The translations under genes and the position numbers were made by a program. Of a stretch of 64,000 bases of DNA, positions 2,289 to 19,475 are shown piece by piece. Position 1 is the first letter of the stretch. Each line of letters opens with the position of its first letter. The notes below the pieces were generated by a model that was given only the letters and a program-made list of their open reading frames with translations, searched no databases and had not been told where the DNA came from. This DNA is from an uncultured delta proteobacterium (GTDB lineage Bacteria; Desulfobacterota; Binatia; Binatales; Binataceae), in contig CAWJET010000002.1 of assembly GCA_963842085.1 (NCBI GenBank), forward strand, positions 1,312,001 to 1,376,000. Reading direction: 5' to 3'.

Positions 2289-2311
2289 CGGAACTCACCC
2301 TAAGCAAGGAT

Positions 2312-2596: not shown

Positions 2597-2605
2597 CGCC
2601 GCAAG

Positions 2606-2798: not shown

Positions 2799-2921
2799 TT
2801 TAGGATGGATGGTGACAGTTCGAGGCGAGGTGGAAATCGCGTTGCTCCAGACAACAACAGCGGACTTCAAGGAAGAACGAATTACGTGAATCGAAATAGA
2901 CAATCACTGAGGTGGCAAACG

Positions 2922-4040
2922 ATGAAAGCAATTCTCGGATGCAGAGACGATTTTCTTTACGTCGTCGAAGAAGAAGACGTTGCGACCGGATCAGAGAAGA
3001 AGTGGCTTCGGGTCCGCATGGCGGACTGCGCCGAAGCCCAAACCCTCGAGGGCCGACCGGTCACGAGCGTGAATCAACAGGAGGGCATTTACGTGGACGA
3101 AGAAGGAAACGTGTATCAACTGGCAGACAAGGGCGAGACGAAGCCGATCGCAATCGAGCATCTCCCTGGAACGGAGAAAACCGAGCTCGAGGTACTACTG
3201 GAAGCTTCGCTGAAGGGAGGGAGGGCGAACGGAAAGAACGGCGGCGCCAAGCGCCTCTTGAAAAAGAATCGAAGCAGCGGTCGTGAGCAGCAAGAGTTGC
3301 AGATGGTAACCGCAAAGCCCGAGCCGCGCCCGGCCGAGGCACCTGCTGCGGTCGAGACCAGCGCCCCAACTTCCAATTTTGCGGCTACCGAAGCTCACGC
3401 CCAGTTGAATCTCCGACAGAAGCTCGCCGAAGTTCGCCGTCGCATCGGCTACATCCAGAAGCGCGGCCACAACGAGCGTCAGAACTACAGCTACGTCACC
3501 GCCGCCGATATCGCCGGCTCGGTCGGTGACATACTCGCCGAATTAGGGGTAGTCGTGATCCCCCGACTCGAAGACATCTCCTACGAATCGGCGGCGGGCC
3601 GTGGAGAAGCCACCCGGATGGCGCGAGTGGTAATGGCCTACACCTTCGCCGACGTCGACAGCGGCGAAGAGATCATCGCGAAGGTTGCGGGCCAGGGGCT
3701 CGATCCCGGCGACAAGGCGCCATACAAGGCGATGACCGGGGCATTGAAGTACGCGTTGCTGCAGTCCTTCCTGCTCGCCACTGGCGACGATCCCGAAGAT
3801 GAACGGGCTGACGGTCGTTACTCGGCAGGAAATCCAGAACGCCTGGTCAGCGCCGATCAAGTTCGCGAACTCCAGAAACTGATCGACGATACCGGAACCG
3901 AGCTCGAACGGGTGCTCACGTACTACAAGGTCGCGTCCCTCTCCGAATTGACCGAGACCGCCTACCGGCGCGCGCTCGAAGTGCTGAATCGCAAACTAGC
4001 CAGGCGCGGCAATCAGGAGACCGCCCATGCCCAGGATTGA
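2922..4040 (+). CDS. ERF-family single-strand annealing protein with a long N-terminal extension
   Basis: IQKRGHNERQNYSYVTAADI...GQGLDPGDKAPYKAMTGALKYALLQSFLLATGDDPE; RBS GAGGTGG before ATG 2922. Confidence 0.85.
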   Translation: MKAILGCRDDFLYVVEEEDVATGSEKKWLRVRMADCAEAQTLEGRPVTSVNQQEGIYVDEEGNVYQLADKGETKPIAIEHLPGTEKTELEVLLEASLKGGRANGKNGGAKRLLKKNRSSGREQQELQMVTAKPEPRPAEAPAAVETSAPTSNFAATEAHAQLNLRQKLAEVRRRIGYIQKRGHNERQNYSYVTAADIAGSVGDILAELGVVVIPRLEDISYESAAGRGEATRMARVVMAYTFADVDSGEEIIAKVAGQGLDPGDKAPYKAMTGALKYALLQSFLLATGDDPEDERADGRYSAGNPERLVSADQVRELQKLIDDTGTELERVLTYYKVASLSELTETAYRRALEVLNRKLARRGNQETAHAQD

Positions 4041-4905
4041 GCGGCTGCATCAGAACACTCCCGAATGGCACCGCTGGCGCAGGCAAGGGATCGGGGCCAG
4101 CGATGCTCCGGTGATCATGGGCGAGACCGCCTTCAAGAGCCCAAGAACGCTCTGGTCGATAAAAACCGGGCGTACGCAGGAAGCTGCGGCGGGTCCGGCA
4201 GCGCGACGCGGCCGCGAACTGGAGCTTTTCGCCCGTAGGGCGTACGAGCGCCAAACCGGAATCCAGGTGGAGCCACTGTGCCTGGTCCACCAGGAGTTCG
4301 AGTGGATGCGGGCGTCGTTGGACGGGCTTAGCTTCGACGGCTCCACGCTCGTGGAGATCAAATGCCCGCTCAGCCCGCGCGATCGCACAGCAGCAGAGCA
4401 AGGTCGCATCCCTTCCCAGTACCATGCGCAGCTGCAGCATCAACTGGAGGTCTCCGGTGCAGCGCAGGCGCACTACTGGTCTTTCCACGGGACCGACGGA
4501 GTCCTGGTCGAAATACGTCCCGACCGGGAATACGCCAAGCGGCTGGTAGAGGCAGAGGCCGCGTTCTGGCAGCTGGTGCAGGAAAACCGCTGGCCCGAAT
4601 CGGCCGACGAGGAACTGGACCTGAGCGCGGAGCCAAAATGGCGTCACGCCGCGCTCCGCTACCGTGAAGTCAGGCTCCAGCTGGAACACGCAGCGGCCGA
4701 AGAGCACAGGCTGCGCGCAACGCTTGCGTGTATGGCGACCGCGCGGCGGACCTACGGCTGTGGCGTCGAAGTATTGAAGAGCTCGCGCAAGGGCGCGGTC
4801 GATTACTCGGCGGTGCCGGAGCTCCGCGGGGTCAACCTCGAACCCTACCGTAAACCGCCGGTGGCGGTTGTGAAGATCAACTTCATCGAGCCCAACCGGC
4901 AATAG
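4027..4905 (+). CDS. YqaJ/lambda-exonuclease family recombinase-associated nuclease
   Basis: QNTPEWHRWRRQGIGASD, ASLDG, VEIKCP, QLQHQL motifs; overlaps the ERF gene. Confidence 0.9.
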   Translation: MPRIERLHQNTPEWHRWRRQGIGASDAPVIMGETAFKSPRTLWSIKTGRTQEAAAGPAARRGRELELFARRAYERQTGIQVEPLCLVHQEFEWMRASLDGLSFDGSTLVEIKCPLSPRDRTAAEQGRIPSQYHAQLQHQLEVSGAAQAHYWSFHGTDGVLVEIRPDREYAKRLVEAEAAFWQLVQENRWPESADEELDLSAEPKWRHAALRYREVRLQLEHAAAEEHRLRATLACMATARRTYGCGVEVLKSSRKGAVDYSAVPELRGVNLEPYRKPPVAVVKINFIEPNRQ

Positions 4906-4911
4906 ACCGTC

Positions 4912-5409
4912 ATGCAGGAATTTTTCGGCTTTCGCAATTTCCGTCAGTTCGAGCGCACCCGCCGAGAGCTCAAGCTGCCCTACGAGCTGCTGAACGACCT
5001 CCGGTTCCGTCAGCTGCCCGATGCCCGCAAGGCCCACCTGCTCTGCCTGCTGCTGCTCTCGGCGCGCATGAACAATCTGCTGCCCAACAGTCCGGTCAAG
5101 CTGGAGCGGCTGATCGGGGCGACCGAGCCCTTGGACTTAAGCGCCTTCGCCTACTTCGTCGACTTTGCCGTGGTGGAACAGCCGAGCTGGCAGGACCGCC
5201 TTGCCAACCGGCGGGTGCCCGATGGCATGCGGGCAGCGGTGCTGGTGCGCGACGGCGGACGCTGTCGAAGATGCCGTAGGGCGATCCAGCTGGAAATGGA
5301 TCACATCGTTCCGGTCAGCAAGGGCGGCAAGACCGAGGAAGCGAACCTTCAGACGCTCTGCCGGCGCTGCAACCGGGCCAAGTCCAAAAAGCTGGCTCCC
5401 AGGTTCTGA
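4912..5409 (+). CDS. HNH endonuclease with a phage replication-organiser-like N-terminal domain
   Basis: RDGGRCRRC...EMDHIVPVSKGG...NLQTLCRRCN. Confidence 0.85.
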   Translation: MQEFFGFRNFRQFERTRRELKLPYELLNDLRFRQLPDARKAHLLCLLLLSARMNNLLPNSPVKLERLIGATEPLDLSAFAYFVDFAVVEQPSWQDRLANRRVPDGMRAAVLVRDGGRCRRCRRAIQLEMDHIVPVSKGGKTEEANLQTLCRRCNRAKSKKLAPRF

Positions 5410-5412
5410 AAG

Positions 5413-7149
5413 ATGGGTGCGGCAGGCGAATCATCCCGCAGCGTCGCGGTCGAGTTGGCGCTGCTGTTCCTGCGCGAACTCGAGCCAACGGTCGCAGAAG
5501 ATCCGGAGCGGTTGGTCTCGACTGAGGCGGTGCTTTCCTTTGCCGCGGTCAGGCGAGGCGATCCGCTCACTTGGCAACACTGGCGCAGGATTCTCGAGAA
5601 GTACGAAAAGGCGGACTTGCTCGAGCACATGCTCGGCGGTCCAGTGCCCACGGAAACCGGCGACGGCAGCTCCGCCGCGGACAGATTGATCGGGATGGTG
5701 CTCGATTCTGGAATCGAGTTCTTTCACGATCCTGACCAGCACGGCTGGGCTTGCGTTCGGGTCGATGGGCACTTCGAGAATCATCCCGTCCGCTCCCGCC
5801 CGTTCCAGCTCTTCCTGCTGCGGACCTATTACCGGGAGACAGGCAACAGCCCGGGCGCCCAAGCCATCCGCGCCACGCTGGAGCTGTTCGAAGCCAAAGC
5901 CCTGTTCGACGGTGAGGAATCACCCATCAATCTTCGGGTCGCAAGTCACCGCGGCAAGCTTTATCTCGACCTATGCGACCGCGCCTGGCGGGCCGTTGAG
6001 ATCGATGCCGAAGGGTGGCAGATAGTAAATCGACCGCCGCCAAGATTTCATCGCACCCGCGGCTCCCGTCCGCTGCCCGCACCCGAGCGCGGCGGCGCTG
6101 TTGACGAACTGCGCCGCTTCCTGAACGTCGACCAACAGGGCTGGACGCTGATCAAGGCCTTCCTGGTCGCGGCGCTACGTCCCGGTGTGCCCTGTCCTAT
6201 CCTGATCGCCAAGGGTGAGCAGGGAGCGGGCAAGACCACTGCATGCAGAATCATCAGCGCGCTGATCGACCCGCGCACCGGGGCACTGCGGGGCGTCCCC
6301 CGTGAAGTTCGCGATCTGACGGCGGCGGCCAGAAACTCCTGGCTCGTATGCTTCGATAACCTGAGCCACCTGCCAGAGGAACTTGCCGATGCAGCCTGCC
6401 GACTAGCCACCGGCGGCGGCTTCGGTGGCCGGGAGCTCTATAGCGATCATGACGAAGCGATCTTCGACGCTATCCGGCCCATCGTGTTCAATGCGATTCC
6501 CGACCTAGGGGGCGCGCGGCCCGACTTTCTCGATCGCGCAGTGATTGTGGAGTTGCTTGACATGAAGCCCGAGCTGCGCCGCGACGAGACGCGGTTCTGG
6601 CACGAATTCGAAGAGGTACGACCGCGCATCCTCGGTGCGCTGCTCGATGCCGTTGTGACCGGACTCGGGAACCTGCCGGCTGTCACGCTCGAGCAACCGC
6701 CGCGGATGGCCGACTTCGCTATCTGGGTAAAGGCTTGCGAGGAAAGCCTCGGCATGAAACCAGGAGAGGCCCTGGCTACCTACCAGTCCAACCGCACCGA
6801 GACGCACAATCTGGCACTTGAGTCCTCGCCGCTGTACGAACCGGTTGCCCTACTGGCCCGCGAGGGCTTTACTGGGACGGTCGCAGAACTGCATTCACGG
6901 CTCAACTTCATGATGAGCGAAAGTATGCGCCGCTCGGTACGCTGGCCCAAGGCGCCCAATGCGCTGAGCAACGCGCTGCGCCGCATGGCCAGCAACCTCC
7001 GCGCTGTCGGAGTCGAGATCCAGTTCAGCCGCGCCGATATCCGCGGTAGGCGCCTGGTATCCCTGGTCTCTGTTTCCGAGCCTCGGAAAAGATCGTCAGT
7101 GATCGTCAGTGACCGTCAGTACGAGTGCCCGCTTCTCAGCCCGTTTTGA
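5413..7149 (+). CDS. Phage/plasmid-type P-loop ATPase (replicative helicase-like)
   Basis: Walker A GEQGAGKTT, Walker B-like VCFDN, RPDFLDR, PRMADF; last gene of a recombination/replication operon. ATG appears to be at 5413-5415. Confidence 0.75.
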   Translation: MGAAGESSRSVAVELALLFLRELEPTVAEDPERLVSTEAVLSFAAVRRGDPLTWQHWRRILEKYEKADLLEHMLGGPVPTETGDGSSAADRLIGMVLDSGIEFFHDPDQHGWACVRVDGHFENHPVRSRPFQLFLLRTYYRETGNSPGAQAIRATLELFEAKALFDGEESPINLRVASHRGKLYLDLCDRAWRAVEIDAEGWQIVNRPPPRFHRTRGSRPLPAPERGGAVDELRRFLNVDQQGWTLIKAFLVAALRPGVPCPILIAKGEQGAGKTTACRIISALIDPRTGALRGVPREVRDLTAAARNSWLVCFDNLSHLPEELADAACRLATGGGFGGRELYSDHDEAIFDAIRPIVFNAIPDLGGARPDFLDRAVIVELLDMKPELRRDETRFWHEFEEVRPRILGALLDAVVTGLGNLPAVTLEQPPRMADFAIWVKACEESLGMKPGEALATYQSNRTETHNLALESSPLYEPVALLAREGFTGTVAELHSRLNFMMSESMRRSVRWPKAPNALSNALRRMASNLRAVGVEIQFSRADIRGRRLVSLVSVSEPRKRSSVIVSDRQYECPLLSPF

Positions 7150-7614: not shown

Positions 7615-9405
7615 TCACGCGGCTAGTTCTTGAGCCTCGCGCATCGCGCGGAACCGACCTGTTGGCCGCGCAGACAGCGCGTCCCAGTCGCCGGATTCGA
7701 CGACCCTGCCGTCTTCAATCACGTAGATTAGATCCGCCCACCTAACGGTTGCGATGCGATGAGCGATGAGGATGGTGGTGGTTCCTGCGCCTAGCTTTTC
7801 AAGCGCACTGAGAACGCGAGCCTCGCTCGCGGAATCGAGGTTGTTGGTTGCCTCGTCGAGTACCAAAAGCCGCGGACGCCTCAGTATCGCACGGGCAAGC
7901 GCTATCCTTTGCCGTTCGCCCTGCGATAATGCCACGCCCCTATCGCCGATGACCGTATCGAGCCCCATTGGGAGCGCCGCCAAGAAGTCGTCAGCCGCCG
8001 CGATCGAAAGTGCTTCTCGAATGTCCGTTTCACTCGCACCCGCTCGCGCCCATTCAACGTTGGCGCGAAGCGTGTCGTGGAAGAGAAACGTATCCGGCGC
8101 AACGTAGCCCACACACTCGCGCCATCGGCGCGCCTCCACGGGTGTCAACTCAGCTCCGTCGATCCTGATGAAACCCTCGTCGGGCGCGATCAACCCCATA
8201 GCTAGATCCGCCAACGTGCTCTTTCCGGCTCCCGATGGACCGACCAGCGCGACGACGGTACCGGCGGGAATGACCAGCTCGGCGCGATATACGGCTGGCG
8301 CCCGGTCGCGGCTGTACGAGAACGAGACGCGATCGAAGCGGATCTCGCGGCGCAGATCCGGCGCCGGCGCGTTCGGTATCCCCGGTTCGGCCGCCGCGGC
8401 GCATCGCTGCTCCAAGGCGATCAAGTTTCCAAAAGAAGGTAGGAGACCAGCGGCCGATCGCAATTGCTGATGACCAGACATCAACCGCGGCATGACGCGC
8501 GCGAACAGCACTAGCAGGATCAGAATTGCGGCGGGCGGAACCGAGAGCACCCGGATCGCCGCGTAGAGCACCGCGCCCATGATCGCGGCCGAGCCTAGCT
8601 CGAACCACGCCGTAGCCGCGGCCTGCGCACCGATCGCCGCAAGGTCGGCAGCCATGAGTGCGCGGCTTGAGCGGGCGAAGATCGAGAAGTTGCGCTCTTC
8701 AGCTCCGCAAGCTTTTGCTGTCTTCAGGCTGTGTAGATGTTCGATCGTCACTGCATATAGCGAGCCCCTGAAATCGGACTGTCTCTGGCCCGCTTGTTCA
8801 ATCGCGCGAGTGCGCCCGCGGAGCGCGATTGCGAGCACCGCAGCGCAGCTCAACACCAGCAGCGTCATCGCAGCCGAGAGCCGAAGCGCGAGCGCGCAAT
8901 ACACAGCGGTCAACACGATATTTGCCGCAACAAGCATGATGTCGTAGGCTGCCTCTCTTACGCGATCGAGTTCGCCGGTCAGCGCATGGGTGAAATCCGA
9001 TGCTCGGCTGCGGCAGATGAACAGCCAGTTAGCGTTCGTGATCGCGCGGTAGAGCCGCAGCCGCATCTCGAGCACGAACTGTTGCTGGACCGCGTACATA
9101 GCCAAGCTCTGCAGCCGACCGACGATCGTTCGCAGCGCAATCAACACGACCAACATGGCGAGCAGAATCTCAAGTGACGGTGTGATCCCCACAGCAGAAA
9201 ATGCGCGTTCGATCGTGCGCGCGTAGCGGCCCGCTGAACCCTGCCCTGCAAGATCGAGCCCCGCGGCTTGCAGGGTTGGCAGCAGGAGCAGGATGCCAAG
9301 GCCTTCGGTCATCGAGAACGCGACCATAAGCGCCACGGCCGCGGTAAGGCGCCACCCGGCGGACCTGGCGAGCTCGCGCACAAACCTGAGCGCCGCGCGG
9401 TTCAT
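7615..9405 (-). CDS. ABC exporter, fused TMD-NBD (lasso peptide D-type)
   Basis: TM helices, GPSGAGKST, LSQGERQR, LLVLDEAT; ATGA overlap with the upstream nucleotidyltransferase gene. Confidence 0.9.
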   Translation of the reverse strand: MNRAALRFVRELARSAGWRLTAAVALMVAFSMTEGLGILLLLPTLQAAGLDLAGQGSAGRYARTIERAFSAVGITPSLEILLAMLVVLIALRTIVGRLQSLAMYAVQQQFVLEMRLRLYRAITNANWLFICRSRASDFTHALTGELDRVREAAYDIMLVAANIVLTAVYCALALRLSAAMTLLVLSCAAVLAIALRGRTRAIEQAGQRQSDFRGSLYAVTIEHLHSLKTAKACGAEERNFSIFARSSRALMAADLAAIGAQAAATAWFELGSAAIMGAVLYAAIRVLSVPPAAILILLVLFARVMPRLMSGHQQLRSAAGLLPSFGNLIALEQRCAAAAEPGIPNAPAPDLRREIRFDRVSFSYSRDRAPAVYRAELVIPAGTVVALVGPSGAGKSTLADLAMGLIAPDEGFIRIDGAELTPVEARRWRECVGYVAPDTFLFHDTLRANVEWARAGASETDIREALSIAAADDFLAALPMGLDTVIGDRGVALSQGERQRIALARAILRRPRLLVLDEATNNLDSASEARVLSALEKLGAGTTTILIAHRIATVRWADLIYVIEDGRVVESGDWDALSARPTGRFRAMREAQELAA

Positions 9406-10613
9406 TGACGTGCGATCTGCGCAGTACGCGGCAAGATACGCGGTCCATGCTGAAGCAGGAGCCGCACTGGGCGCGTCAAGTAATAGGCCCAATAGAACGC
9501 TTTGGGCAGCGGCAGTGCTTCCCAGTCTTCGATCGTCGGGCGCAGGCCTCTGGTCAGCAAATACTGAAGGCGTAGTCCCAATCCTTCGATAGCGCTCAAT
9601 GGCACTACCCAGTCGCAGTATATCGATGGCAAAAGACCGGGCGCCGGAAAAAGCCGGCGGGCAATTCCGACGGCAAGCCGCATCACCCGGCCGTCGGAAG
9701 TAGATCGGCCTAGCACACCTTCAGGGACATGCCCACCTGCGAACGCTTGCGCAAGCACCGCACCAAGACGGAACATTCGCGTACATCCTAATCGCGCCAT
9801 CTCGTCTTCAGTTTGCTCCCAATCCGCCAAGCCTGTTGCGGTCAGCGCGGCGATGTCGCACATCGAGCGCAGCGACGCCCATCCCCATCCGTGCTTGGTC
9901 GCGTGCGCGATGCTGAAGATCAGGTGGTTGTCCGGGGCCAGCGTTTGCATCCACCGCCCATCGATCTCGACCACAACGCCGTTGCGCCAGACCGCTTCGT
10001 GGTTCGGACGATAGGGAAAATAGCTTGGCACCAGCGCTAGGTGCAGGTCGATCAGCAGACCGCCTTGCTTCTCGAACTGATCCTCGAAGGATCGGAAGAA
10101 ACCAAAATACGGAGCGCCGGATTGGTATCGCCGGGGGCGATAGCCCCGATCCGTAAGGATTCTGCCAACCTGCGGCAAGTCGCCTTGCCGGACGAGGATG
10201 TCCAGGTCGCCTGACTGACGGGCCGCGAGATCTCCATAGGCCTGAACTGCGAGCGCCGGTCCCTTGAGCGCGAGCATACCAAGCCCGGCTGCCGCGAACG
10301 CTTCATGAACCTCGACGAGCTCATGCGCCAGCCGGAGATGCGTGAGTGCGTTCGCCGCGTACCAGGCGTGAAGACGCGCGGCTATATCGGCTGGAACGCG
10401 GTCCGCGCAATGCGCGGCTAGGAAGCGATGCACGGGAGGTATGACGAAATGCCCCGCGGCCTCGGACGCAACTCGGTCCCAGTCGAGATCGCGGGCGGCA
10501 AGCGCAGTCGCGCGGGAACGCGACTCAGAGGTCGCAGGTGTCGAAATGCACGCAGCGATCAGCTGCCCCTCGAGCGGCAGCTCAGCACGCAGCGATTGGG
10601 CTATGTCATCCAT
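9402..10613 (-). CDS. Nucleotidyltransferase family protein (lasso-cluster associated, NTP_transf_5-like)
   Basis: LKGPALAVQAYGDLAARQSGDLDILV, IDLH, HATKHGW motifs. Confidence 0.85.
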   Translation of the reverse strand: MDDIAQSLRAELPLEGQLIAACISTPATSESRSRATALAARDLDWDRVASEAAGHFVIPPVHRFLAAHCADRVPADIAARLHAWYAANALTHLRLAHELVEVHEAFAAAGLGMLALKGPALAVQAYGDLAARQSGDLDILVRQGDLPQVGRILTDRGYRPRRYQSGAPYFGFFRSFEDQFEKQGGLLIDLHLALVPSYFPYRPNHEAVWRNGVVVEIDGRWMQTLAPDNHLIFSIAHATKHGWGWASLRSMCDIAALTATGLADWEQTEDEMARLGCTRMFRLGAVLAQAFAGGHVPEGVLGRSTSDGRVMRLAVGIARRLFPAPGLLPSIYCDWVVPLSAIEGLGLRLQYLLTRGLRPTIEDWEALPLPKAFYWAYYLTRPVRLLLQHGPRILPRTAQIARQ

Positions 10614-10659
10614 AAGAGGCAGGCGGTATGCCGATACGGCCGCCAGGTTACCGACCGGT

Positions 10660-11121
10660 TCAGTGGCGGGCGTCGTACTCCGTACTACGAAAGAGCGCAG
10701 CATAGCGGCCCGATTCGAACGCGCCGCCGATCACGATTCCCCCTTTGTACTCGACCCACGCGTGGGCAGCGAGTTGGCCCGTCGGACTCTTTGACGCGCC
10801 TATCCGCAACTCGCTGGTCAAACCGAGCCGGCTCAGCATACGCTGTACCGCTATCGCACGCACCAGACAGTTGCGCCCGCCCGGAACGCACGCGCTTGCG
10901 GCCGCCACGGCCCGTGCAACACGAGCCACAAGCAGCGCTGGATCGTGGTTGTACGTGCTGTTTCGAGCGGGTGCGCCAGCCCAATCGCGCACCCGAGCGA
11001 ACGGCAGCAGAAGCAGCCTTGCTCGTGCTGCAAGCACGGCGAGGAACGCTCTGGGTAGTATTATCCACTCCGCTACGGATAATGTGCGAATCCTTCGAAT
11101 GCGGGCAAGCACGGGGCTCAT
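10660..11121 (-). CDS. Lasso peptide leader peptidase B2 (transglutaminase-like)
   Basis: NCLVRA (catalytic Cys), LRIG, AHAWVE (catalytic His). Confidence 0.9.
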   Translation of the reverse strand: MSPVLARIRRIRTLSVAEWIILPRAFLAVLAARARLLLLPFARVRDWAGAPARNSTYNHDPALLVARVARAVAAASACVPGGRNCLVRAIAVQRMLSRLGLTSELRIGASKSPTGQLAAHAWVEYKGGIVIGGAFESGRYAALFRSTEYDARH

Positions 11122-11155
11122 GCGGGTGTTCATTGCGCCACGCGCAGGTCGAGCT

Positions 11156-12187
11156 TCAGCGCCCTGCTGAGAGCTTGGCACTCTCACGATTGCCGCCGCT
11201 CATATCCGCGAGCACCATCTCGCGTACCGCGGCTAACGCGGTGAAGTCGTTCGGAACTACGAGCTTCTTTACCGGCACTTTCGCGACGACCTGCTTGAGA
11301 AATCGAAGTTTGTGGAGATTGGCGGCGCGATCAGTTGATTCGAATAACCACGACGCTGACGCCAGTTCGACCAAGGATTCGGCCCAAGACATGTGCTCGA
11401 CCTTTGGCGCATGGGTCTGGTCCGCATCGTTGTCCAGCCGGTTCAATCGGTATATCCACTTGAGCGGCACCGATTTGGCCGCCAAACTGGCCCTGGGGTC
11501 GGCGGCGTCGTGCCGGCTCAAGCGAATAATCCGCCCGAGCGGCTGCGGTTGGGCGTTTGAATGGAGATCAGGCGCGCATCGCTCGGAGTTGTAGCCTGCG
11601 ACGGCGTCCGACCGAGCCGAGTCGATTCTCAGCGCTTCGACGCTTTCATTCGACAGCCACGCGCCTGGATAGCCGGGCGTGAGAACGATCTGGCCGCTGC
11701 CACTCAGACTCAGCACGACCCAGTCGTCGCCGAGCAGCGGGAAGCCCGCAAGTGCAAAGCTTGCCGCGAGCGTCGATTTTCCGGTACCTCCCGGGCCGAT
11801 GAATGCGCACGCTCCATAGTCGGTCAAAAAGGCGGTCGCGTGGATCGACTTGATTCCGATCAGATCGAGAACACCCGGGATGACGCCATTGAGAAGCCGA
11901 TGTCGCAGTACCTTGGGAAAAATTTCAGAGTGTACTCTGCAATACTCTATCGCGCGCACCAGACAATTGCGCCAACCGGGAACGCGCGCGCTTGCGGCTG
12001 CCACGGCCCGTCCAACACGCGCCGCAAGCAGCGCAGGTGCAGCAGCCCAATCGCGCACGCGCGCAAATGCCAGCCACAGCAGCCTCGCTCGCACGGCAAG
12101 CACGGCGAGCAGGGCCCCGGGCACCGGCTTGCGGTCAGCTTCGGATAATGCGCGGACCTTTCGGATCCGGGCGAAGGCGGTTCTCAT
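11156..12187 (-). CDS. Chimeric protein: B2 N-terminal half fused to an HPr-kinase-like domain
   Basis: N-terminus MRTAFARIRKVRALS...FARVRDW...NCLVRAI matches B2; C-terminal part has IHATA, GPGGTGKST, LLGDD. Confidence 0.75.
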   Translation of the reverse strand: MRTAFARIRKVRALSEADRKPVPGALLAVLAVRARLLWLAFARVRDWAAAPALLAARVGRAVAAASARVPGWRNCLVRAIEYCRVHSEIFPKVLRHRLLNGVIPGVLDLIGIKSIHATAFLTDYGACAFIGPGGTGKSTLAASFALAGFPLLGDDWVVLSLSGSGQIVLTPGYPGAWLSNESVEALRIDSARSDAVAGYNSERCAPDLHSNAQPQPLGRIIRLSRHDAADPRASLAAKSVPLKWIYRLNRLDNDADQTHAPKVEHMSWAESLVELASASWLFESTDRAANLHKLRFLKQVVAKVPVKKLVVPNDFTALAAVREMVLADMSGGNRESAKLSAGR

Positions 12188-12224
12188 TCCAACGACCAGT
12201 GTGTCGGCACCTGTAGTCTGAGCG

Positions 12225-13223
12225 TCAGCACACTTCGAGGAATCCCACGCTATCACGCTCGTGACCGCTCATATCCGCGAGCACCATCTCACGTGCCGCG
12301 GGTAACGCGGCGAAGTCGTTCGGAACTACGAGCTTCTTTATTGGCACTTTCGCGACGACCTGCTCGAGGAATCGGAATTGGCGGAGATTGGCAAAGCGAT
12401 CAGTTGGATTGAATCGATACGACGCTGACGCCAGCTCGATCAACGATTCGGCTCGAGACATGCGCTCGATCCTTGGCGCATAGGTCTGGTCCGCGACGTT
12501 GTCCGTCAGCCGGTTCAATCGGTATATTTGTTTGAGCGGCAGCGATTCGGTCGCGAAATTTCGCCTCAGGTCCGGAACCCGACGTTTCCAATCGTCGTCG
12601 CCGATAGTTTCCGATCGGGCCGGATAGATGCCGAGTGCGTCAAGGCTGTCACCCCACAGACGCGTGCCCGCGTAGCCAGGCGTCAGGACAATCTCTAGGG
12701 CGCTGCAAAGGACGACGCAATCGTCGCCGAGAAGGAGCGCTCCGCTGCGCACAAGACTTGTGGCCAAGGTGGACTTGCCGGCGCCGGTCGGACCGAGGAA
12801 CGCGCATGCGCCGCCATCGATTGCAACCGCCGTCGCATGAATCGCCTCGAAGCCACGGAGATCGAGCACGCGGGGAATTACGGCGTCCAATAAGAGATGC
12901 CGCAGCATATCGCGCGAAGTCGCATCGCAAAGCCCGCAGCACTCAATTTCATCACCGCCTTCGCTGACGAAGAAATCCGCCAGTCCGGGAAACCGCAACA
13001 GGTAGCCACCGGGGGTAGTCGCACAGATTAGCCACTCCTGCCCGTCGATATTGTCGTGACGTAAAAAGACCGCATCGGGATCGAATTCGATCAGTCTTGC
13101 AATCTGGAGGCGTACGCGCATCACAGCTTGCGGCTCATGCTCGCTGCCCGAGTACGGCGTTAGTTCCGGAAGAAGCACGTCGGAGTCGAGGCGGATTCCG
13201 TACACTGAATACGACGGCATCAT
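12225..13223 (-). CDS. HPr-kinase-like lasso peptide kinase (PadeK/ThcoK-like)
   Basis: IHATAV, Walker A GPTGAGKST, LLGDD; located in the lasso cluster. Confidence 0.85.
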   Translation of the reverse strand: MMPSYSVYGIRLDSDVLLPELTPYSGSEHEPQAVMRVRLQIARLIEFDPDAVFLRHDNIDGQEWLICATTPGGYLLRFPGLADFFVSEGGDEIECCGLCDATSRDMLRHLLLDAVIPRVLDLRGFEAIHATAVAIDGGACAFLGPTGAGKSTLATSLVRSGALLLGDDCVVLCSALEIVLTPGYAGTRLWGDSLDALGIYPARSETIGDDDWKRRVPDLRRNFATESLPLKQIYRLNRLTDNVADQTYAPRIERMSRAESLIELASASYRFNPTDRFANLRQFRFLEQVVAKVPIKKLVVPNDFAALPAAREMVLADMSGHERDSVGFLEVC

Positions 13224-13471
13224 TGAAGATCGATCTGGTCGAGAGACGCCCGCAGGCGCTGCTGGAACCTCCAGCGCAGATTTCGTTCAACCGGAAGAAT
13301 CACGCGCGTTCCCGTCGGCTCGGCCTCGTGAGAATTCTCGAGAGACCCGGAAAAAGTGCGGCTGTAGTCATGTCTCCTAGGTATCTTGAGCGCGGAATCC
13401 CGCGAGTCGGGACCCTTGTGGGGGTTAAGGCGCTTTGCGGCATACCCCCGTGCGTTGCGCCCAAGGTACGT

Positions 13472-13660
13472 TTACGGAAAGCCCGGAAACTGAAAGCCCT
13501 GCTTTTTGGTCATCCTGTCTGATCTTCTACCCGCACTGCCAGCGGTGAGCTTCGCAACGTCACCGTACCTCACCAAAGCGGGCTTTACATACAGCGGGCG
13601 AGGACTGGCGCAGTATTTCCCGATCGCAGGCGACGAACTGCTGTTGCTTTCGGGCTTCAT
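13472..13660 (-). CDS. Lasso peptide precursor; predicted core GSAGRRSDRMTKKQGFQFPGFP (Gly1-Asp8 ring)
   Basis: Leader motif YVKPALVRYGDVAKLT (YxxPxL...G...T at -2), Gly1 and Asp8; RBS AGGAGA 8 nt upstream. Confidence 0.9.
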   Translation of the reverse strand: MKPESNSSSSPAIGKYCASPRPLYVKPALVRYGDVAKLTAGSAGRRSDRMTKKQGFQFPGFP

Positions 13661-13940
13661 CCAAAATTCTCCTGCACCCGGTCAAATATAGTCAACTGAG
13701 TTAGCGAATTCCAGTCAGGGAAATCAATCAAATCGTCCGCTTCATGCCGCTAGTCATTGCCAAAGCTCCGTCGGCTAGCCCACTCCATAGTTCGAAATGA
13801 CGTGTGCCACGAATGGCTGCGCCTCGCGGGCATGTGAAACAGATCGGAATGCAATTCGTAAACCCGGCGCTCGATCTCCGCTCGTTCGCCGCGTCGGGTC
13901 GCACAGGTCAACGACCCAGCGCGCGCGGGCCACCACGGAG

Positions 13941-15932
13941 TCAGCACAAAGTAGGGGGCCTGTCTGGCGAGACTAGAGACATGCTCGAATCGCGATTTGT
14001 TTCGGTCGTTGCAATGCGGGCGAAGCCGCCCGAGAAGTGTCGAATCAGCATCTCAACTCCAAACAAGGCAAATCCGGTCCACATGTAATCGGTGCATCGA
14101 CAGTCGTGCGACTGATAGAATCGCCAGGCGGCTTCGTGCGCCTGCTTCAGCCGAGCCTGACTCACCCAGCCCATCTCCGCAATCTCCAGGCGATCGATCA
14201 GTGAATCACCAGTTTGCTTGACCGCTCTCATCATCAGGTCGCTGAAGTCACCCTTCGTGGTTCGCTTTCTGATCCGCTCGGGCAAGAGTTCCTTCATCGC
14301 ATGGCGCATGAGGAGCTTCGAAACTCCCTGGTTCCAGCGGTGCTCTTCAGCGAGCCCAGAGACAAATTCGATCACGCGGCGATCGCAAAATGGATGACGG
14401 TAATCAATACCGAGCCGCCCGGCGTCCCGCTCGCCTCCTTCAACCGCGTAGGTCAGCCATCCGTCGCGCATCAGGTACCACATCGCCCAGACCGCTTGTG
14501 GCTTTTCGTCCCACTCTCCAAGCGCCCGGCGCGCACGGTCCTCCAGATCAAAGCGCCTGGCAAAGGCCGGCTCGAGCCATGAGAGCCACGCAAATGAGGG
14601 GCTTTCGCCGCGGTTGAGCATTCGCCTGACGCGTTCTCGCGCGAACGCCGGCACGAACGGCCATACCGCCGAGCGAAAGACGACATCGATGAACCCGCGC
14701 TGGACCTCGCCTGACCCTATATTCTTTCTCAGCGATCGCAGGGCGTGGGCGAACCTCACCGGATGAACCCCGCGGACCAAAGCAGCGAGATCGCCGGTCC
14801 CTCCATCCATCGTGTGATCCCCGCCGTGACCGCTCAGCGCAACGCGCAGTCCCCGCGCAGCGACGTTCTGCATGAGGGTTTGCCCCATTGCGTAATTGGG
14901 ATACGGCGGCAATTCGAGGTGGCGATGCACGTAATCAGCGAACCAGGCGGCGTCCGGCTCGAATGCGTGGCATTCGTGGGTCGAGAAGTCGCACGCGCGC
15001 TCGACTTCGGCAATATATTCGCGCTCGTCCGCGTCAGGATCGGTATAATTCAGCGAGAATGGCTCGGCGCGATTGCTGACAATACCCCGGCGCATCAGAT
15101 CGTGTCCGATGCATACGATTGACGAGGAATCGAGGCCGCCGCTCAGATCGGCCGCAACATCACCCGGAGAGCGCATCCGGCATCGGACCGCCTCGACCAG
15201 GGTCTCGCGGAGGGCCGAAGCGGTATCGTCGTAAGTGGCAAAGCGAAGCGCCTTCGCTGCAGCCGGATCGTAGTACTCGCGATGCCTCATTCCCGAGCTG
15301 TCTACCGTGAGGCATGCCCCGCCTTCGAGTCTGAATATGTTGCGTATTACAGTCTCTCGACGCGTGAATGGACCGCCAGCTAGGCACTCTGCAAGAAACG
15401 CCTCGTTGAGCTTGCGGCCGATCGCATGGTCCTGAAGAATCTGGATCAGATCGGATGCGCACAGGAATCTTCTGCCGTCGAAGAAGTAGTGCAGCGGCTT
15501 GAAACCGAGCGGATCGCGCGCGCACAGCATCCTGCGTCTGCGGCCGTCCCATACCACGATCGCAAAATCGCCGAGCAAGCGGTTCCAGGCTCCTTCGTCC
15601 CAGAGCTCGAAGCATCGTCCGACGAGCTCTACATCGGTCGGTTCATCCAAGCTCGCGCCCGAAGATTCCAGTTCACGCAAGAGTTCCCTTCGGTTGTCGA
15701 TGCGCCCGTCGAAGATAACTCGGATGGTCGCGTCCGCGTTGACCCAGGGCTGGTCCTCGCGCACCGCCTCGGGTGTAGTGGCAAACTTCCGAAACGCCAT
15801 GCCCGCCGCCCCTTCGGTCCAGAACGCTGCACCGTCGGGACCGCGATCGCACACGGAGTCCACCATCGCGCGTAGCATAGCCCGGTCGGCCGGCCGCTCG
15901 TCGACGTTGAATATACCTGCGATCGCACTCAT
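13941..15932 (-). CDS. Lasso peptide cyclase (asparagine synthetase-like C protein)
   Basis: MSAIAG start (no glutaminase Cys), DGRIDN, ARDPLG, DLSGGLDSSSI, SGHGGD, RHPFCDRR. Confidence 0.9.
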   Translation of the reverse strand: MSAIAGIFNVDERPADRAMLRAMVDSVCDRGPDGAAFWTEGAAGMAFRKFATTPEAVREDQPWVNADATIRVIFDGRIDNRRELLRELESSGASLDEPTDVELVGRCFELWDEGAWNRLLGDFAIVVWDGRRRRMLCARDPLGFKPLHYFFDGRRFLCASDLIQILQDHAIGRKLNEAFLAECLAGGPFTRRETVIRNIFRLEGGACLTVDSSGMRHREYYDPAAAKALRFATYDDTASALRETLVEAVRCRMRSPGDVAADLSGGLDSSSIVCIGHDLMRRGIVSNRAEPFSLNYTDPDADEREYIAEVERACDFSTHECHAFEPDAAWFADYVHRHLELPPYPNYAMGQTLMQNVAARGLRVALSGHGGDHTMDGGTGDLAALVRGVHPVRFAHALRSLRKNIGSGEVQRGFIDVVFRSAVWPFVPAFARERVRRMLNRGESPSFAWLSWLEPAFARRFDLEDRARRALGEWDEKPQAVWAMWYLMRDGWLTYAVEGGERDAGRLGIDYRHPFCDRRVIEFVSGLAEEHRWNQGVSKLLMRHAMKELLPERIRKRTTKGDFSDLMMRAVKQTGDSLIDRLEIAEMGWVSQARLKQAHEAAWRFYQSHDCRCTDYMWTGFALFGVEMLIRHFSGGFARIATTETNRDSSMSLVSPDRPPTLC

Positions 15933-15956
15933 TGGCTGTTTCAGGAGGCGCGCGAT

Positions 15957-16226
15957 TTAAGCTGCAGTCTTGATCAGACCTTCGTTCGAGAGATCACTTA
16001 TGAGTTCGTCGAAATCGCGCTCAATCTGGTCGCGGGAAACGTTGTACTGGGTGGCTAGGGATTGCAAAATCTCTTCGCGTCTTCGGCCTGCCGCGATCAA
16101 GGTCCAGATACGCGCGCCGACCTGATTGAGACCGAAATAGATGCCAGTATCCAACTTTAGGATCACCACCTCATCATCGAGGTCGGTCCAGACCACGTCG
16201 TCGACAACTCGAAGGACATTCGTCAT
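15957..16226 (-). CDS. RiPP recognition element (PqqD-like B1/E protein)
   Basis: DDEVVILKLDTGIYFGLNQVGARIWTLI...LSNEGLI, 89 aa. Confidence 0.9.
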   Translation of the reverse strand: MTNVLRVVDDVVWTDLDDEVVILKLDTGIYFGLNQVGARIWTLIAAGRRREEILQSLATQYNVSRDQIERDFDELISDLSNEGLIKTAA

Positions 16227-16278
16227 GGCAGCAGAACCAGGTTGCCCTGAGTTGATTCGAGGATTGAATCGTCCACAC

Positions 16279-18132
16279 TCAGATCGGACGGGCCGTTCCG
16301 ATCGGCAAGGCACCGGGCGCTGCGCCCCCGCCGGAAGGTTCACGTGGCACGACCTCCTGCGTCTCGTTCAGTTGCATCGAGAATCTCCGCACAGGTATTC
16401 CGTGCGTCCGCCCAAAGCGGTGAAGTCTTTCCATCTGCCCGGGAGCGAGCTCTTCGTCCGCAACGATGATCTCGGTGAACGGCACCCGCGCGTGGATGGA
16501 CTCGATGTCCTCAGGTGTGCCCAGCACTTCCTCTCCGTGCAAGAGTTTGCCGTGCTTGAATGCATCCTCATCGACGAATCCAACAATCCGGGCCGAGCGT
16601 GTGCGCGCCTTCAACACGAATTCTGCGGCCACGGTTCCGATTTCTCCAGCTCCTACCACTAGTACCCTGTCAGTGACGGTCGCGAGGCGGCTGATCAGCC
16701 TGCGCAACACCTGGAACGACATCCGCGTCGCGACCAAAAGGTTGACGAGCAGCAGCGCGAACAGCACCGCGATTGATCCGGAATGCCTGATGGGCAGGAA
16801 ATTGGATCCGATTGCCACGAGGCTTGCAGCGAGCATCGCGCCGCCGGCGAACCGGAAGCTGTCCGTGAGACCCGCGTGGCGCCAGATTCCGCGATAAACG
16901 CCCGCGAGCAGAAATGCCGGGTACGTCAGCACGATCACCCACGGCAGCCCGCGCATCATCGATGCGAGCACCTCGGGAGTGAGGTTGAAATCGAGCCGCA
17001 ACGCGCACGCACCGAAATAAGCAGCGCTGATTAGCGCGATGTCCATCGTCGCATCAGCAATTCGTCGTTTGTAGCCGAGGGAAAGAATGTACCGTGCGAC
17101 CCCCTGAAGATAGCCGTATGCGACGCCCGGGGGATTCGCGTCGAAGATCAAATCGATCATGAAGAGCGCGATCACCGCCGCAGCGAGTGCGATAAACGGC
17201 AGCGCTGCGACAACGTCAGGGTGCGGCAACAGGTTAGCCGCAACCGCGCATACCGCAGTGACCGTCGCCACCGCCCAGATCGACGCGACAGTCCTCCGCT
17301 CCGAAAGTCCGAGCGAGAGCAGGCGATCGTGTACGTGCTCCAACCCATGCCGCGAAATCGCTTTCCCCGTCGCCAGTCGGGATGCCGTCACGATTCCCGT
17401 GTCGAGCAGTGGCACCAGCATCACCAGCACTGGGAAAACCCAAAGAGTGAGTCGCGTGTTCGTCGCGAGCGCTCCTCCTTGAAGCGCCAGTACTCCGAGC
17501 ATGTACCCGAGCGGGAGAGCGCCCGCGTCGCCCATAAAGATCGACGCGGGATAGATATTGAAGATCAGAAATCCCCCCAACGCTCCGGCGACGGCGAGGC
17601 TCGGCGCGGTTACCGCGGGCACTCCTCGCACGGTGCCGATCACCGCAATCGCAGCGGCGACCGTAAGTCCGATGCCCGCCGCCAGACCGTCAAGTCCGTC
17701 GACGAGGTTGAACGCGTTAGTCGCGGCGACCAGCCAGAAGATGCTGATCCCTACACCCAGAAATTGCCAAGGAGCGAACGCGTAACGGGGCAACGCGAAC
17801 ATAGCCGCCCACGTAACTATCGCGAGCTGGCATAACAATTTCTGCCGCGGGCTCAGCACCAGCGCATCGTCTACCAGACCGACTGCCAGCATCGCGCCGG
17901 CGCCTATCGCCACCCACGAGACCAGGTGGCTGGTCACCGCGAGGGCGACGACGATCGAGACAATAATCGAAATGCCACCCGTAGCAGGAACTCGTGCTTC
18001 GCTGAGCGGTGAAGCTACTTTCGCCGTGATGCCAATCCACCGCCCAAAGCGCATCGCAGCGGGCATCGTAACAATCGCCGCTAAGAACGCGATTGCTCCC
18101 GTCGTCCACGGATTTGTCAGTAGGGCGAGCAT
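16279..18132 (-). CDS. WecA/MraY-like polyprenyl-phosphate sugar-phosphotransferase fused to a CapD-type TM/Rossmann region
   Basis: GLVDD, NAFNLVDGLDGLA, IFMGDAG; C-terminal YRGIWR and VLVVGAGEIG. Confidence 0.85.
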   Translation of the reverse strand: MLALLTNPWTTGAIAFLAAIVTMPAAMRFGRWIGITAKVASPLSEARVPATGGISIIVSIVVALAVTSHLVSWVAIGAGAMLAVGLVDDALVLSPRQKLLCQLAIVTWAAMFALPRYAFAPWQFLGVGISIFWLVAATNAFNLVDGLDGLAAGIGLTVAAAIAVIGTVRGVPAVTAPSLAVAGALGGFLIFNIYPASIFMGDAGALPLGYMLGVLALQGGALATNTRLTLWVFPVLVMLVPLLDTGIVTASRLATGKAISRHGLEHVHDRLLSLGLSERRTVASIWAVATVTAVCAVAANLLPHPDVVAALPFIALAAAVIALFMIDLIFDANPPGVAYGYLQGVARYILSLGYKRRIADATMDIALISAAYFGACALRLDFNLTPEVLASMMRGLPWVIVLTYPAFLLAGVYRGIWRHAGLTDSFRFAGGAMLAASLVAIGSNFLPIRHSGSIAVLFALLLVNLLVATRMSFQVLRRLISRLATVTDRVLVVGAGEIGTVAAEFVLKARTRSARIVGFVDEDAFKHGKLLHGEEVLGTPEDIESIHARVPFTEIIVADEELAPGQMERLHRFGRTHGIPVRRFSMQLNETQEVVPREPSGGGAAPGALPIGTARPI

Positions 18133-18428
18133 TGATAAACTTTGTCAAAGCTTGTGTTTTATTCTCAAAGCATAGAATTACATGTAAAACTGTTGAATAT
18201 CAATAAGTTTAGCCAGATAAATCCGTTTAACCGTTGAATTTGACTTGCACTCCTGCTCCCGACAAGGCCGCGGCTCGGACCACCTGGGCGATACTGTCGT
18301 TCGCCTGCGAAGCTGCTGGAATGATCCGCGGCGAGGTTAGCTTGCTAGCGCTAGGGCGAATCTCACCAAGAAAACCCAATGCGATATTAATTTCGTAGCG
18401 AAAGAGACAGACTTCCGGAGTGCGGCGA

Positions 18429-19475
18429 TCAGGTAGGAGAGGATCCGGCTTCCTGCAGGAACTTTTCACGAACCTGCTGTTCAATCCAGGCGTAAGTGCG
18501 CGCGAGTCCCTCCTCCAGGGAAATCTCCGGCTCCCAGTTCAAGACCTCGCGCAGCCTAGTGTTGTCGGAATTGCGTCCGCGTACACCCTGAGGACCGGGC
18601 ACATGCTTGCGGCTGATTCGAATGCCCGCGATGCCCGCCACAATTCCGGCAAGTTCGTTTATCGTAACCATCCGGTCCTGGCCAAGATTGAGGGGCTCGT
18701 GGTAGTCCGATCGCATCAACTTTGAGATCCCGGTGATACAGTCGTCGATATAGCAGAACGAGCGGGTCTGCTCGCCGTCTCCCCAGATCTCCACTTCGTG
18801 ATTCCCCGTCAGCTTTGCGTGCGCTACTTTGCGACTCAATGCAGCAGGTGCCTTTTCGCGCCCGCCTTCCCAGGTGCCGTAGGGGCCGAACACATTATGG
18901 AAGCGGACTATCCGCGTCTCGATTCCGTAGTCTTCGCGATAGTGGGTGCACAATCGCTCGGTGATCAGCTTCTCCCACCCATAGGCGTCTTGCGGCTGCG
19001 CGGGGTAAGCGTCTTGCTCCTTAAGAGGAGCAACGTCGGTTTCGCTCTGCTTGTACTCCGGATAGACACAGGCCGACGAGCTGTACAAATAGCGGCGTAC
19101 GTCGTTGCGACGAGCAGCCTCCAGGGTCTGAAAATTGATCATCGCGTTGTTGTAGAGGATCTGCGAGTGATGGGAGGAGATGAAACCCATTCCGCCCATG
19201 TCCGCGGCGAGCGCATAGACCTCGTCGATTCCGCGCGTCGCCGCGACACAGTTCTCCCAGCTGCGAAGATCCAGGAGCAGAAATTCGTCGCAATCCGACG
19301 GAAGGAATTCCGGCTTCTTGATGTCCACGCCGCGGACCCAGTATCCGTCGCGTTTGAGGCGACTGGTCAGATGACTGCCGATGAATCCGCCCGCTCCGGT
19401 AACGAGAACTTTCGTCGTAATAAGTGTCACAACGGTTGATTTTACGTCGCGCTGCGTGAACTGAAATTCTATCAA
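18429..19475 (-). CDS. GDP-mannose 3,5-epimerase-like SDR (start uncertain)
   Basis: GAGGFIG, LAADMGGMGFI, SSACVYP, YGWEK, GGREKAPAA. Confidence 0.85.
   Translation of the reverse strand: MIEFQFTQRDVKSTVVTLITTKVLVTGAGGFIGSHLTSRLKRDGYWVRGVDIKKPEFLPSDCDEFLLLDLRSWENCVAATRGIDEVYALAADMGGMGFISSHHSQILYNNAMINFQTLEAARRNDVRRYLYSSSACVYPEYKQSETDVAPLKEQDAYPAQPQDAYGWEKLITERLCTHYREDYGIETRIVRFHNVFGPYGTWEGGREKAPAALSRKVAHAKLTGNHEVEIWGDGEQTRSFCYIDDCITGISKLMRSDYHEPLNLGQDRMVTINELAGIVAGIAGIRISRKHVPGPQGVRGRNSDNTRLREVLNWEPEISLEEGLARTYAWIEQQVREKFLQEAGSSPT

Follow-up and report, generated by a model that had tools for sequence, protein, structure and literature searches.

The lasso-peptide gene cluster described here occupies positions 7615–16226 of a 64,000-nucleotide stretch of DNA (the window; positions 1,312,001–1,376,000 of contig CAWJET010000002.1, assembly GCA_963842085.1) from an uncultured delta proteobacterium, and the described systems closest to it are those of pseudomycoidin, paeninodin and LPP. 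The pseudomycoidin cluster psmCAKB1B2ND of Bacillus pseudomycoides DSM 12442 encodes a cyclase, a precursor, an HprK-like kinase and a split B1/B2 pair. The available part of that report places a nucleoside triphosphate (NTP) transferase of the PF14907 type between B2 and the ATP-binding cassette (ABC) exporter (B2-N-D), names no other tailoring genes and gives PsmN as required for one or two hexoses on the phosphate (PMC6993621). The kinases PadeK and PsmK phosphorylate the C-terminal Ser of the precursor, as described in the available portions of the two reports (PMC8498205, PMC6993621).

A connection with polysaccharides has also been described. In the available part of a 2026 paper, paeninodin-like clusters are co-located with capsular polysaccharide loci in Bacilli, and in Paenibacillus alginolyticus an eps gene and pbaB1, a lasso gene for a RiPP recognition element (RRE), rise together in stationary phase (PMC13381572). 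The same part presents LPP, encoded by lpp of P. alginolyticus, as a system that combines an HprK-like kinase and an NTP transferase with a discrete RRE, an exporter similar to MsbA and a leader of the YxxPx[LV] form in a polysaccharide-locus setting, with a SipW-like signal peptidase and with no cyclase or B2; its kinase, LppK, acts on S3 of the linear core (PMC13381572). Among rumen lasso clusters, 36% are accompanied by glycosyltransferases, according to the available text of PMC7533575. Our full-text literature search on links between lasso peptides and polysaccharides returned no paper beyond PMC13381572 that addresses the link. Co-localization itself is already in print for Bacilli, and the instance in the window does not count as a discovery by itself. 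On the role of phosphorylated and glycosylated lasso peptides, the 2026 paper, in its available part, speculated on biofilm (PMC13381572).

The window cluster shares with pseudomycoidin all of the components listed above, including the NTP transferase between B2 and the exporter, but B1 stands ahead of the cyclase, a second, chimeric kinase is present, and the core ends in Pro, not Ser; moreover, the host belongs to a Gram-negative-type uncultured lineage and the cluster is appended to a Wza/Wzc locus. With paeninodin, found in Paenibacillus dendritiformis C454, as well as with the paeninodin-like clusters of Bacilli it has in common the kinase-tailored lasso type and the co-localization with polysaccharide genes (PMC8498205, PMC13381572, available parts). 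The kinase of paeninodin acts on a C-terminal Ser, whereas the window core has no such residue, and the loci described for Bacilli are of the CpsD/Eps type, whereas that of the window is a Wza/Wzc/Wzx/Wzy locus without a SipW-like peptidase or a second RRE. All the features listed above for LPP up to its polysaccharide setting recur in the window, which differs in having a cyclase and B2; in the Pfam search, no peptidase S26/signal peptidase family was found among the cluster proteins. The cluster is a variant of the known type in three respects: it lacks the C-terminal Ser, it carries a B2'-kinase born of a duplication, and its host, near Binataceae, has a Wza/Wzc locus.

Organization of the Lasso-Peptide Gene Cluster

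By its family matches, gene order and intact reading frames, we take 7615–16226 to be a complete, genuine and maintained lasso-peptide gene set of the kinase plus PF14907 nucleotidyltransferase type. The explanation of the whole that we consider best, with a probability of roughly 0.65, is a maintained cluster that would make a free modified peptide and whose linkage to polysaccharide loci is facultative and recurrent. In the order of transcription after wecA, the genes are as follows:

15957–16226, minus strand: RRE/B1 (PqqD-like), 89 aa, with ATG at 16226; PF05402 (E 7e-18) and NF033536.
13941–15932, minus strand: lasso cyclase (C); PF00733 (Asn_synthase) and PF13537 (GATase).
13472–13660, minus strand: precursor, 62 aa; lasso leader NF033521, 25.9 bits (cut-off 19).
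12225–13223, minus strand: HprK-like peptide kinase (K); weak PF07475 (Hpr_kinase_C), 21 bits, under the cut-off, and weak TIGR04352.
11156–12256, minus strand: chimeric B2'-kinase, a B2-like N-terminus joined to a kinase catalytic part.
10660–11187, minus strand: B2 leader peptidase; PF13471 (E 1.8e-20) and NF033537, 92.8 bits (cut-off 33).
9402–10703, minus strand: nucleotidyltransferase (N); PF14907 (E 9e-55), placed between B2 and the exporter like PsmN.
7615–9492, minus strand: ABC exporter (lasso D); PF00664 (ABC_membrane) and PF00005 (ABC_tran).

All eight open reading frames (ORFs) are intact, and the minus strand carries every long ORF within 7615–42501. The initial annotation had named these eight components, all of which were recovered on the minus strand, at positions equal or very close to those it gave, and its view of the cluster as paeninodin/pseudomycoidin-like, with kinase(s) and a PF14907 nucleotidyltransferase, agrees with the family matches and the gene order. 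The precursor gene is set off by spacers of 280 bp on the cyclase side and 248 bp on the kinase side, and the five genes from the first kinase to the exporter overlap successively by 32, 32, 44 and 91 nt. The G+C content of the lasso part (61.2%) is close to that of the polysaccharide part (61.4%). For the seven genes that could be scored against their orthologues in a sibling species (G062, see below), the ratio of nonsynonymous to synonymous divergence (dN/dS) was 0.20–0.45.

The best NCBIfam match of the cyclase was the lasso cyclase NF033535 (E 2.5e-117; 393 bits, below the strict cut-off of 525), and it is the only lasso cyclase in the genome of the window (G000). We also considered the XrtA/PEP-CTERM amidotransferase system and rejected it, as the score for TIGR03108 (200 bits) stays below the cut-off of 817 and is far surpassed by that of the lasso cyclase model. 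The best NCBIfam matches of the exporter were the HepA and MsbA families, both under the cut-off. Its ORF begins with TTG, and because the ORF overlaps the nucleotidyltransferase stop, the true start may lie further downstream.

Precursor Peptide and Predicted Modification Site

The ATG of the precursor is preceded by GGAG at 8 nt. Residues 1–40 form the leader, with the motif Y24-x-x-P27-x-L29 and T39 at position −2, and residues 41–62 form a 22-residue core that starts with G41, has D48 at core position 8 and ends in PGFP. The predicted ring-forming pair is G41/D48; the ring would then comprise 8 residues, and the tail 14, many of them Phe, Pro and Lys. Together with the leader motif and the Thr at −2, this geometry agrees with what is expected of a lasso precursor, namely Gly/Ala/Ser/Cys at core position 1 and Asp/Glu at one of positions 7–9.

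The C-terminal Ser that is phosphorylated in paeninodin and pseudomycoidin is absent, the final residue being Pro. Beside relatives of the kinase we found 22 further precursors of the same build, two with Thr as the last residue and none with Ser; lack of a C-terminal Ser therefore characterizes the clade and does not point to decay. Each of the 22 has at least one Ser/Thr among core residues 1–6. Because the core ends in Pro, the phosphosite would not be C-terminal; by analogy, we infer phosphorylation at another Ser/Thr, most likely near the core N-terminus, for which S3 of LPP is the best precedent in a core without a C-terminal Ser (PMC13381572, available part). The earlier proposal of a phospho-glycosylated lasso peptide fits the type of cluster, whose product probably carries phosphate and sugar, but is weakened by the lack of the C-terminal Ser, the sole residue for which both modifications were demonstrated in the characterized systems.

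As a separate observation, several cores among the precursors of loci L029, L030, L031, L081, L082 and L085 finish in a conserved Cys-Leu dipeptide (e.g., GSCL and GGCL).

Kinase and Chimeric Second Kinase

In the alignment of the kinase family, the Walker A motif GxxGxGKST and the DD motif are invariant (G144, G147, G149, K150, S151, D167, D168), and in the kinase tree the window kinase stands among lasso-cluster kinases, including those of Paenibacillus, Cohnella and Neobacillus. A PDB sequence search with the kinase returned P-loop noise only. The HPr-rel-A system kinases (TIGR04352/TIGR04355) have a distant likeness to the window kinases around the P-loop; with scores of 29.7 and 27.5 bits where the cut-off is 200, the window kinases are not members of that group.

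The second kinase is a composite. Residues 24–112 are 60% identical to residues 23–121 of B2, that is, about its first two-thirds, and keep the context of the catalytic Cys, with the His/Asp lost; residues 91–359 are 53% identical to the first kinase from residue ~77 onward, with the N-terminal ~76 residues of the kinase missing and with the Walker A and DD motifs retained. The DNA shows how this could have arisen:

11181–12504: tandem duplication, with direct repeats 1066–1096 bp apart, the longest of 255 nt (11181–11435 and 12250–12504) and 85% identical.

A tandem duplication of a unit made of the kinase 3' part and the B2 5' part gives exactly the order kinase, B2'-kinase, B2. Judged from these repeats, the second kinase arose as a side effect of a tandem duplication of ~1.07 kb, and two species have retained it. 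In G062 the chimera is intact, and its dN/dS (0.45 in all, with 0.42 in the kinase part and 0.49 in the B2-like part) indicates moderate constraint. At about residues 240–290, the window chimera has ~25 residues more than the G062 orthologue; they resemble the preceding stretch and look like a small internal duplication.

PF14907 Nucleotidyltransferase

Residues D166 and D168 of the nucleotidyltransferase are invariant in an alignment of 17 homologues. A PDB sequence search gave no solved relative of this protein. An AlphaFold model built from the 17-sequence alignment reached a predicted local distance difference test (pLDDT) score of 82.9 and a predicted template modelling (pTM) score of 0.82. 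In Foldseek, the nearest structures to its core were minimal nucleotidyltransferases, namely MenT toxins, LnuA and ANT(2'')-Ia (E 7e-4 to 8e-3), with a weaker likeness to FKRP (rank 29, E 0.026). The modelled fold would fit either a nucleotidyl- or a phospho-transfer reaction. Zyubko et al. reportedly arrived at the same ANT lead.

The window genome has a second PF14907-type nucleotidyltransferase (36% identical) at ~935,560–937,460 of contig C2, beside a kinase fragment (39% identical over the last 100 residues). With no cyclase match nearby, this may be a remnant or a cyclase-less kinase/nucleotidyltransferase pair.

Polysaccharide Locus and Its Junction with the Lasso Genes

Upstream of the lasso genes lie the following features:

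16227–16278, minus strand: wecA-RRE spacer, 52 bp.
16279–18132, minus strand: WecA/MraY-family priming transferase, 617 aa, with Glycos_transf_4 (PF00953) in the N-terminal half and CoA_binding_3 in the C-terminal half.
18133–18428, minus strand: spacer between the epimerase gene (Epim1) and wecA, 296 bp, with an AT-rich piece at 18133–18240.
18429–42501, minus strand: the rest of a Wzx/Wzy-type locus, identified with Pfam and NCBIfam.

The wecA-like gene is the last of the polysaccharide locus, which further holds Wza (41230–42501, PF02563), Wzc (38852–41230, PF13807 and PF02706), Wzx (30812–32326, PF01943) and two Wzy_C proteins (PF04932 in both), one of them a Wzy_C-TPR protein. With the priming transferase, Wzx, Wzy, Wzc and Wza all present, the locus is of the Wzx/Wzy-dependent kind. 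The other genes encode a sugar-1-phosphate nucleotidyltransferase, dehydratases/epimerases, methyltransferases, a GT2 and three GT1 glycosyltransferases, WecG and the epimerase at 18429–19475. The measured extent from 16279 to the end of Wza at 42501 (26.2 kb) agrees with the ~26 kb of co-oriented polysaccharide genes first noted, and the gap between the WecA stop and the RRE ATG, first put at ~52 bp, is exactly 52 bp.

In a promoter/terminator scan, the 52-bp spacer contained no terminator-like site, and co-transcription of wecA with the lasso genes is plausible from the layout. The initial annotation had also placed a promoter in the AT-rich piece. Its low G+C content was confirmed (28.7% over 108 bp, compared with ~61% around it), and it holds a TTTACA-16-GAGAAT match at 18188–18161, but the promoter did not find support: the piece is absent from the three sibling species compared below, whose Epim1-wecA spacers measure 63–248 bp with 57–60% G+C, one of them having the same wecA-lasso order, and promoter-like matches were not more frequent than in shuffled sequences (5 versus 3.4 ± 2.3). 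The piece may represent a small insertion carrying a promoter. Another promoter-like match, at 13695–13666, was rejected as a promoter, as it overlaps the ribosome-binding site of the precursor.

It should be noted that the WecA-like protein joins a WecA/MraY-type domain in an unusual way to CoA_binding_3, a domain that normally fronts WbaP/CapD-type proteins. The fusion is kept across the genus: 42 of the 46 other genus genomes have a match (G023 and G018 included).

Comparison with Sibling Species

Three genus genomes (G056, G041 and G062) carry WecA-like orthologues with 84–86% identity. In G062, the entire lasso cluster follows 56 bp after wecA, in the same place as in the window; the identities to the window proteins are 80% for the RRE, 64% for the cyclase, 58% for the kinase, 69% for the chimera, 78% for B2 and 74% for the nucleotidyltransferase. 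In G056 and G041, DNA homology to the window breaks off at the wecA stop (at window 16276 and 16251). The genes beyond it are unrelated ones of housekeeping type: Lon, H+-PPase and others in one genome, and a metallo-beta-lactamase-fold protein, GH127 and others in the other. No orthologous nucleotidyltransferase was found elsewhere in these two genomes, the best matches being paralogues with 33–34% identity. Siblings with and without the cassette at the same polysaccharide locus offer a natural contrast.

Synonymous divergence (dS) between G000 and G062 was 0.27–0.51 for wecA, the epimerase, RRE, B2, the chimera and the nucleotidyltransferase, but 1.4–1.7 for the cyclase and the first kinase, and it was saturated for the precursor. 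A blastn comparison of the window with G062 gave no match over window ~13043–14650; the diverged segment spans 12250–14650 in the window and 12360–14366 in the G062 locus (L071). The raised dS, together with the blastn gap, therefore indicates that the cassette made of the cyclase 3' part, the precursor and the kinase was exchanged or diverges much faster. From this pattern, it looks like a specificity cassette swapped between siblings. The core has 22 residues in the window and 15 in G062.

Linkage of Kinase Loci to Polysaccharide Genes

Relatives of the kinase, 28–43% identical, occur in 17 of the 24 genus genomes searched (16 of 23 without G023). We inspected 18 kinase loci of relatives, 15 from the same genus and three from one genome of the same class, from −7 to +12 kb, with two of them cut by contig ends; most contain the RRE, cyclase, B2 and nucleotidyltransferase. 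To look further afield, we ran a pattern scan with an alignment of seven kinases over a single genome for each species; it yielded 108 confirmed distant relatives, of which the best 80 were used, with flanks of up to 10 kb. As tblastn queries for hallmark genes we took 15 Pfam-verified proteins, which comprised priming transferases, Wzx, Wzy, Wzc/CpsD and Wza, and we required E ≤ 1e-6 and a coverage of at least 35%. In one batch of distant loci, the Pfam check covered 68 of the 105 called ORFs, those nearest to the cassette.

Within 10 kb, 12 of these best 80 loci have a hallmark gene by tblastn. Pfam confirmed the linkage in nine loci (L089, L099, L100, L102, L107, L116, L121, L141 and L144), while the polysaccharide matches of L113, L115, L149 and L087, not confirmed by Pfam on called ORFs, are counted as unverified. 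For comparison, hallmarks stand at two places in the 4.93-Mb genome of the window, so that ~1.5% of positions lie within 10 kb of one; in 39 published relatives we counted 86 Wza genes, ~2.2 per genome, with two unpublished genomes set aside. On a kinase tree of 72 rows (a quick IQ-TREE run, with L113 among the labelled rows and L144 left out for its short match), the polysaccharide-linked label needs eight changes, at least seven of which are forced by well-supported branches. With at least seven separate positions in the tree, the linkage is therefore not one inherited event. The Pfam-confirmed loci are arranged as follows:

L141 (Ruminococcus), on one strand: CpsD-like, unassigned, ABC, nucleotidyltransferase, 68-aa precursor ending in Ser, cyclase, kinase, RRE, B2; then, after 14 bp, Bac_transf, GT2, GT1, pyruvyl transferase, unassigned, Wzy, Wzx.
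L100 (Neobacillus): cyclase-kinase-RRE-B2-nucleotidyltransferase-ABC, then CpsD-like, CapD-like, sugar nucleotidyltransferase, EpsG.
L116 (Acidobacteriota): ABC, precursor, RRE, cyclase, kinase, then Glycos_transf_4 and GDP-mannose dehydratase.
L089 (Acidobacteriota): carbamoyltransferase, GT1 and Bac_transf directly ahead of RRE and cyclase.
L099, L102 and L107 (Sphingomicrobium, Sphingomonas): GT1, Wza, Wzc, Wzy, then nucleotidyltransferase, B2, kinase, cyclase; in L099, nucleotidyltransferase and kinase only.
L121 (Blastomonas): nucleotidyltransferase and kinase 3 kb from GT2, Wzy and Wza.
L144 (Nodosilinea): Wza fragment, Wzc-like, GT1, nucleotidyltransferase, kinase, methyltransferase, B2, cyclase.

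For the L141 precursor (7751–7957), the predicted core ends in Ser and, at ~50 residues, is much longer than usual lasso cores. In the sphingomonad loci L099 (8833–10855) and L121 (8305–10729), a kinase and PF14907 pair without cyclase or B2 stands at the edge of the Wzy/Wza genes. It may be this pair, and not the lasso machinery, that is the unit associating with polysaccharide loci.

Several observations weigh against the reading of a maintained cluster with a recurrent polysaccharide linkage. None of the 18 loci of relatives matches any of 18 polysaccharide-locus proteins of the window or the 15 hallmark queries (tblastn, E ≤ 1e-5); 68 of the 80 distant loci have no hallmark gene, with 24 of the 80 being shorter than 12 kb; and the baseline is rough, coming from one genome and one class only. 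Two of the three siblings (G056 and G041) keep the orthologous polysaccharide locus without the lasso cluster, and the exporter gene of G062 carries a frameshift and is truncated. On its distal side, the cluster is flanked by phage-like genes in the window and by a MazF-type toxin gene and others in G062; the 3' end of wecA is therefore a variable spot for unrelated DNA. In addition, the score of the kinase lies under every curated family cut-off, and without a C-terminal Ser, the sole experimentally mapped modification site of the paeninodin/pseudomycoidin type is absent.

Another possibility is that the lasso cluster simply landed in a recombination-prone spot at the end of the polysaccharide island, with no functional tie. 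Each of the four species that have the orthologous locus carries different DNA past the wecA stop, the cluster is polymorphic for presence and absence, and the 18 loci of relatives are all unlinked, as such a coincidence would predict. We nevertheless consider it rather unlikely, because 9–12 of 80 distant loci are linked, compared with the ~1.5% expected, at no fewer than seven separate places in the kinase tree; the clusters of L141 and L100 are operon-like and embedded; and the junction is conserved, with a spacer of 52–56 bp, in two species with a synonymous divergence of ~0.4. The independent statement for Bacilli and the synchronous rise of pbaB1 and an eps gene in P. alginolyticus, given in the available part of PMC13381572, also speak against it.

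Taken together, our results show that the polysaccharide linkage is real, recurrent and facultative. The initial annotation had called for a synteny survey of whether the lasso genes repeatedly adjoin such loci: recurrence in unrelated lineages was found (12/80, nine Pfam-confirmed), but regular adjacency was not (0/18 relatives, 68/80 distant loci unlinked, two of three siblings without the cluster). Homologous clusters away from such loci, which the initial annotation had named as evidence against its reading, are thus the situation in most relatives. The pairing is not confined to Bacilli and extends to the Wza/Wzc/Wzx/Wzy loci of Gram-negative-type lineages.

Proposed Pathway and Nature of the Product

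On the basis of characterized homologues, the following pathway can be proposed for the maintained cluster. The cluster would probably be transcribed together with the priming transferase gene. The RRE would bind the YxxPxL leader of the 62-aa precursor, and the HprK-like kinase would phosphorylate a Ser/Thr, most likely near the core N-terminus as with S3 of LPP. B2 would then cut off the leader after T39-A40, and the cyclase would link G1 to D8 of the core. The nucleotidyltransferase would add a further group to the phosphate (a hexose in pseudomycoidin), and the ABC pump would export the product. Most probably the product is a modified peptide that is exported in free form, and the likeliest meaning of the placement of the cluster is co-regulation or shared use of activated sugars. 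The locus also points to phosphorylation elsewhere than at a C-terminal Ser.

A covalent peptide–polysaccharide product is speculation. In such a hybrid, the phosphopeptide would be joined to a repeat-unit sugar or to the finished polymer, or would prime it, with the nucleotidyltransferase forming or activating the phosphodiester. The PsmN-dependent hexose on the phosphate of pseudomycoidin indicates that a peptide-O-P-O-sugar link exists (PMC6993621, available part), and in the window, L116 and L141, which represent three unrelated lineages, a priming phosphoglycosyl transferase gene stands directly next to the cassette, with Bac_transf one gene off in L089. The cyclase-less pairs beside Wzy/Wza in L099 and L121 and the weak likeness of the nucleotidyltransferase model to FKRP, a phosphodiester-forming transferase acting on glycans, would be in line with it. 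However, the cluster has its own peptide-type ABC exporter, the siblings without the cassette have a complete polysaccharide locus, most relatives are unlinked to polysaccharide genes, the closest folds of the nucleotidyltransferase are small-molecule adenylyltransferases, and no member is known to carry out such chemistry; we regard the hybrid as improbable. Just as doubtful is the broader idea that kinase and PF14907 form a general phospho-linker module, which would phosphorylate ribosomal peptides and activate their phosphate or couple it to a sugar, so that the peptides become phosphodiester-bound to lipid-linked repeat units or to the finished polymer from the adjacent priming transferase and Wzx/Wzy machinery. 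If it were true, there would be an unrecognized class of peptide-decorated bacterial polysaccharides over many phyla, with the lasso fold as one of several cargoes.

A decayed, non-functional cluster, with the duplicated chimera and the missing C-terminal Ser as erosion, is hardly credible: the broken exporter of G062 and a chimera without the B2 His/Asp and the kinase N-terminus would suit it, but all ORFs are intact in the window, dN/dS is below 0.5 for every scored gene, the chimera included, and the lack of a terminal Ser is shared by all 22 clade precursors.

Distal Flank

Over the whole window, neither the Rfam scan (gathering threshold) nor the tRNA scan gave a match; by these scans, the 248- and 280-bp spacers flanking the precursor hold no known riboswitch, and the window has no att-type tRNA landmark. 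The distal edge of the cluster is formed by one further group of genes:

1614–7149, plus strand: phage-like genes (CI-type repressor, ERF, YqaJ, HNH and a 578-aa protein).

The 578-aa protein matches no family. With YqaJ as its exonuclease, this group resembles a phage-like recombination module and is convergent to the lasso exporter.

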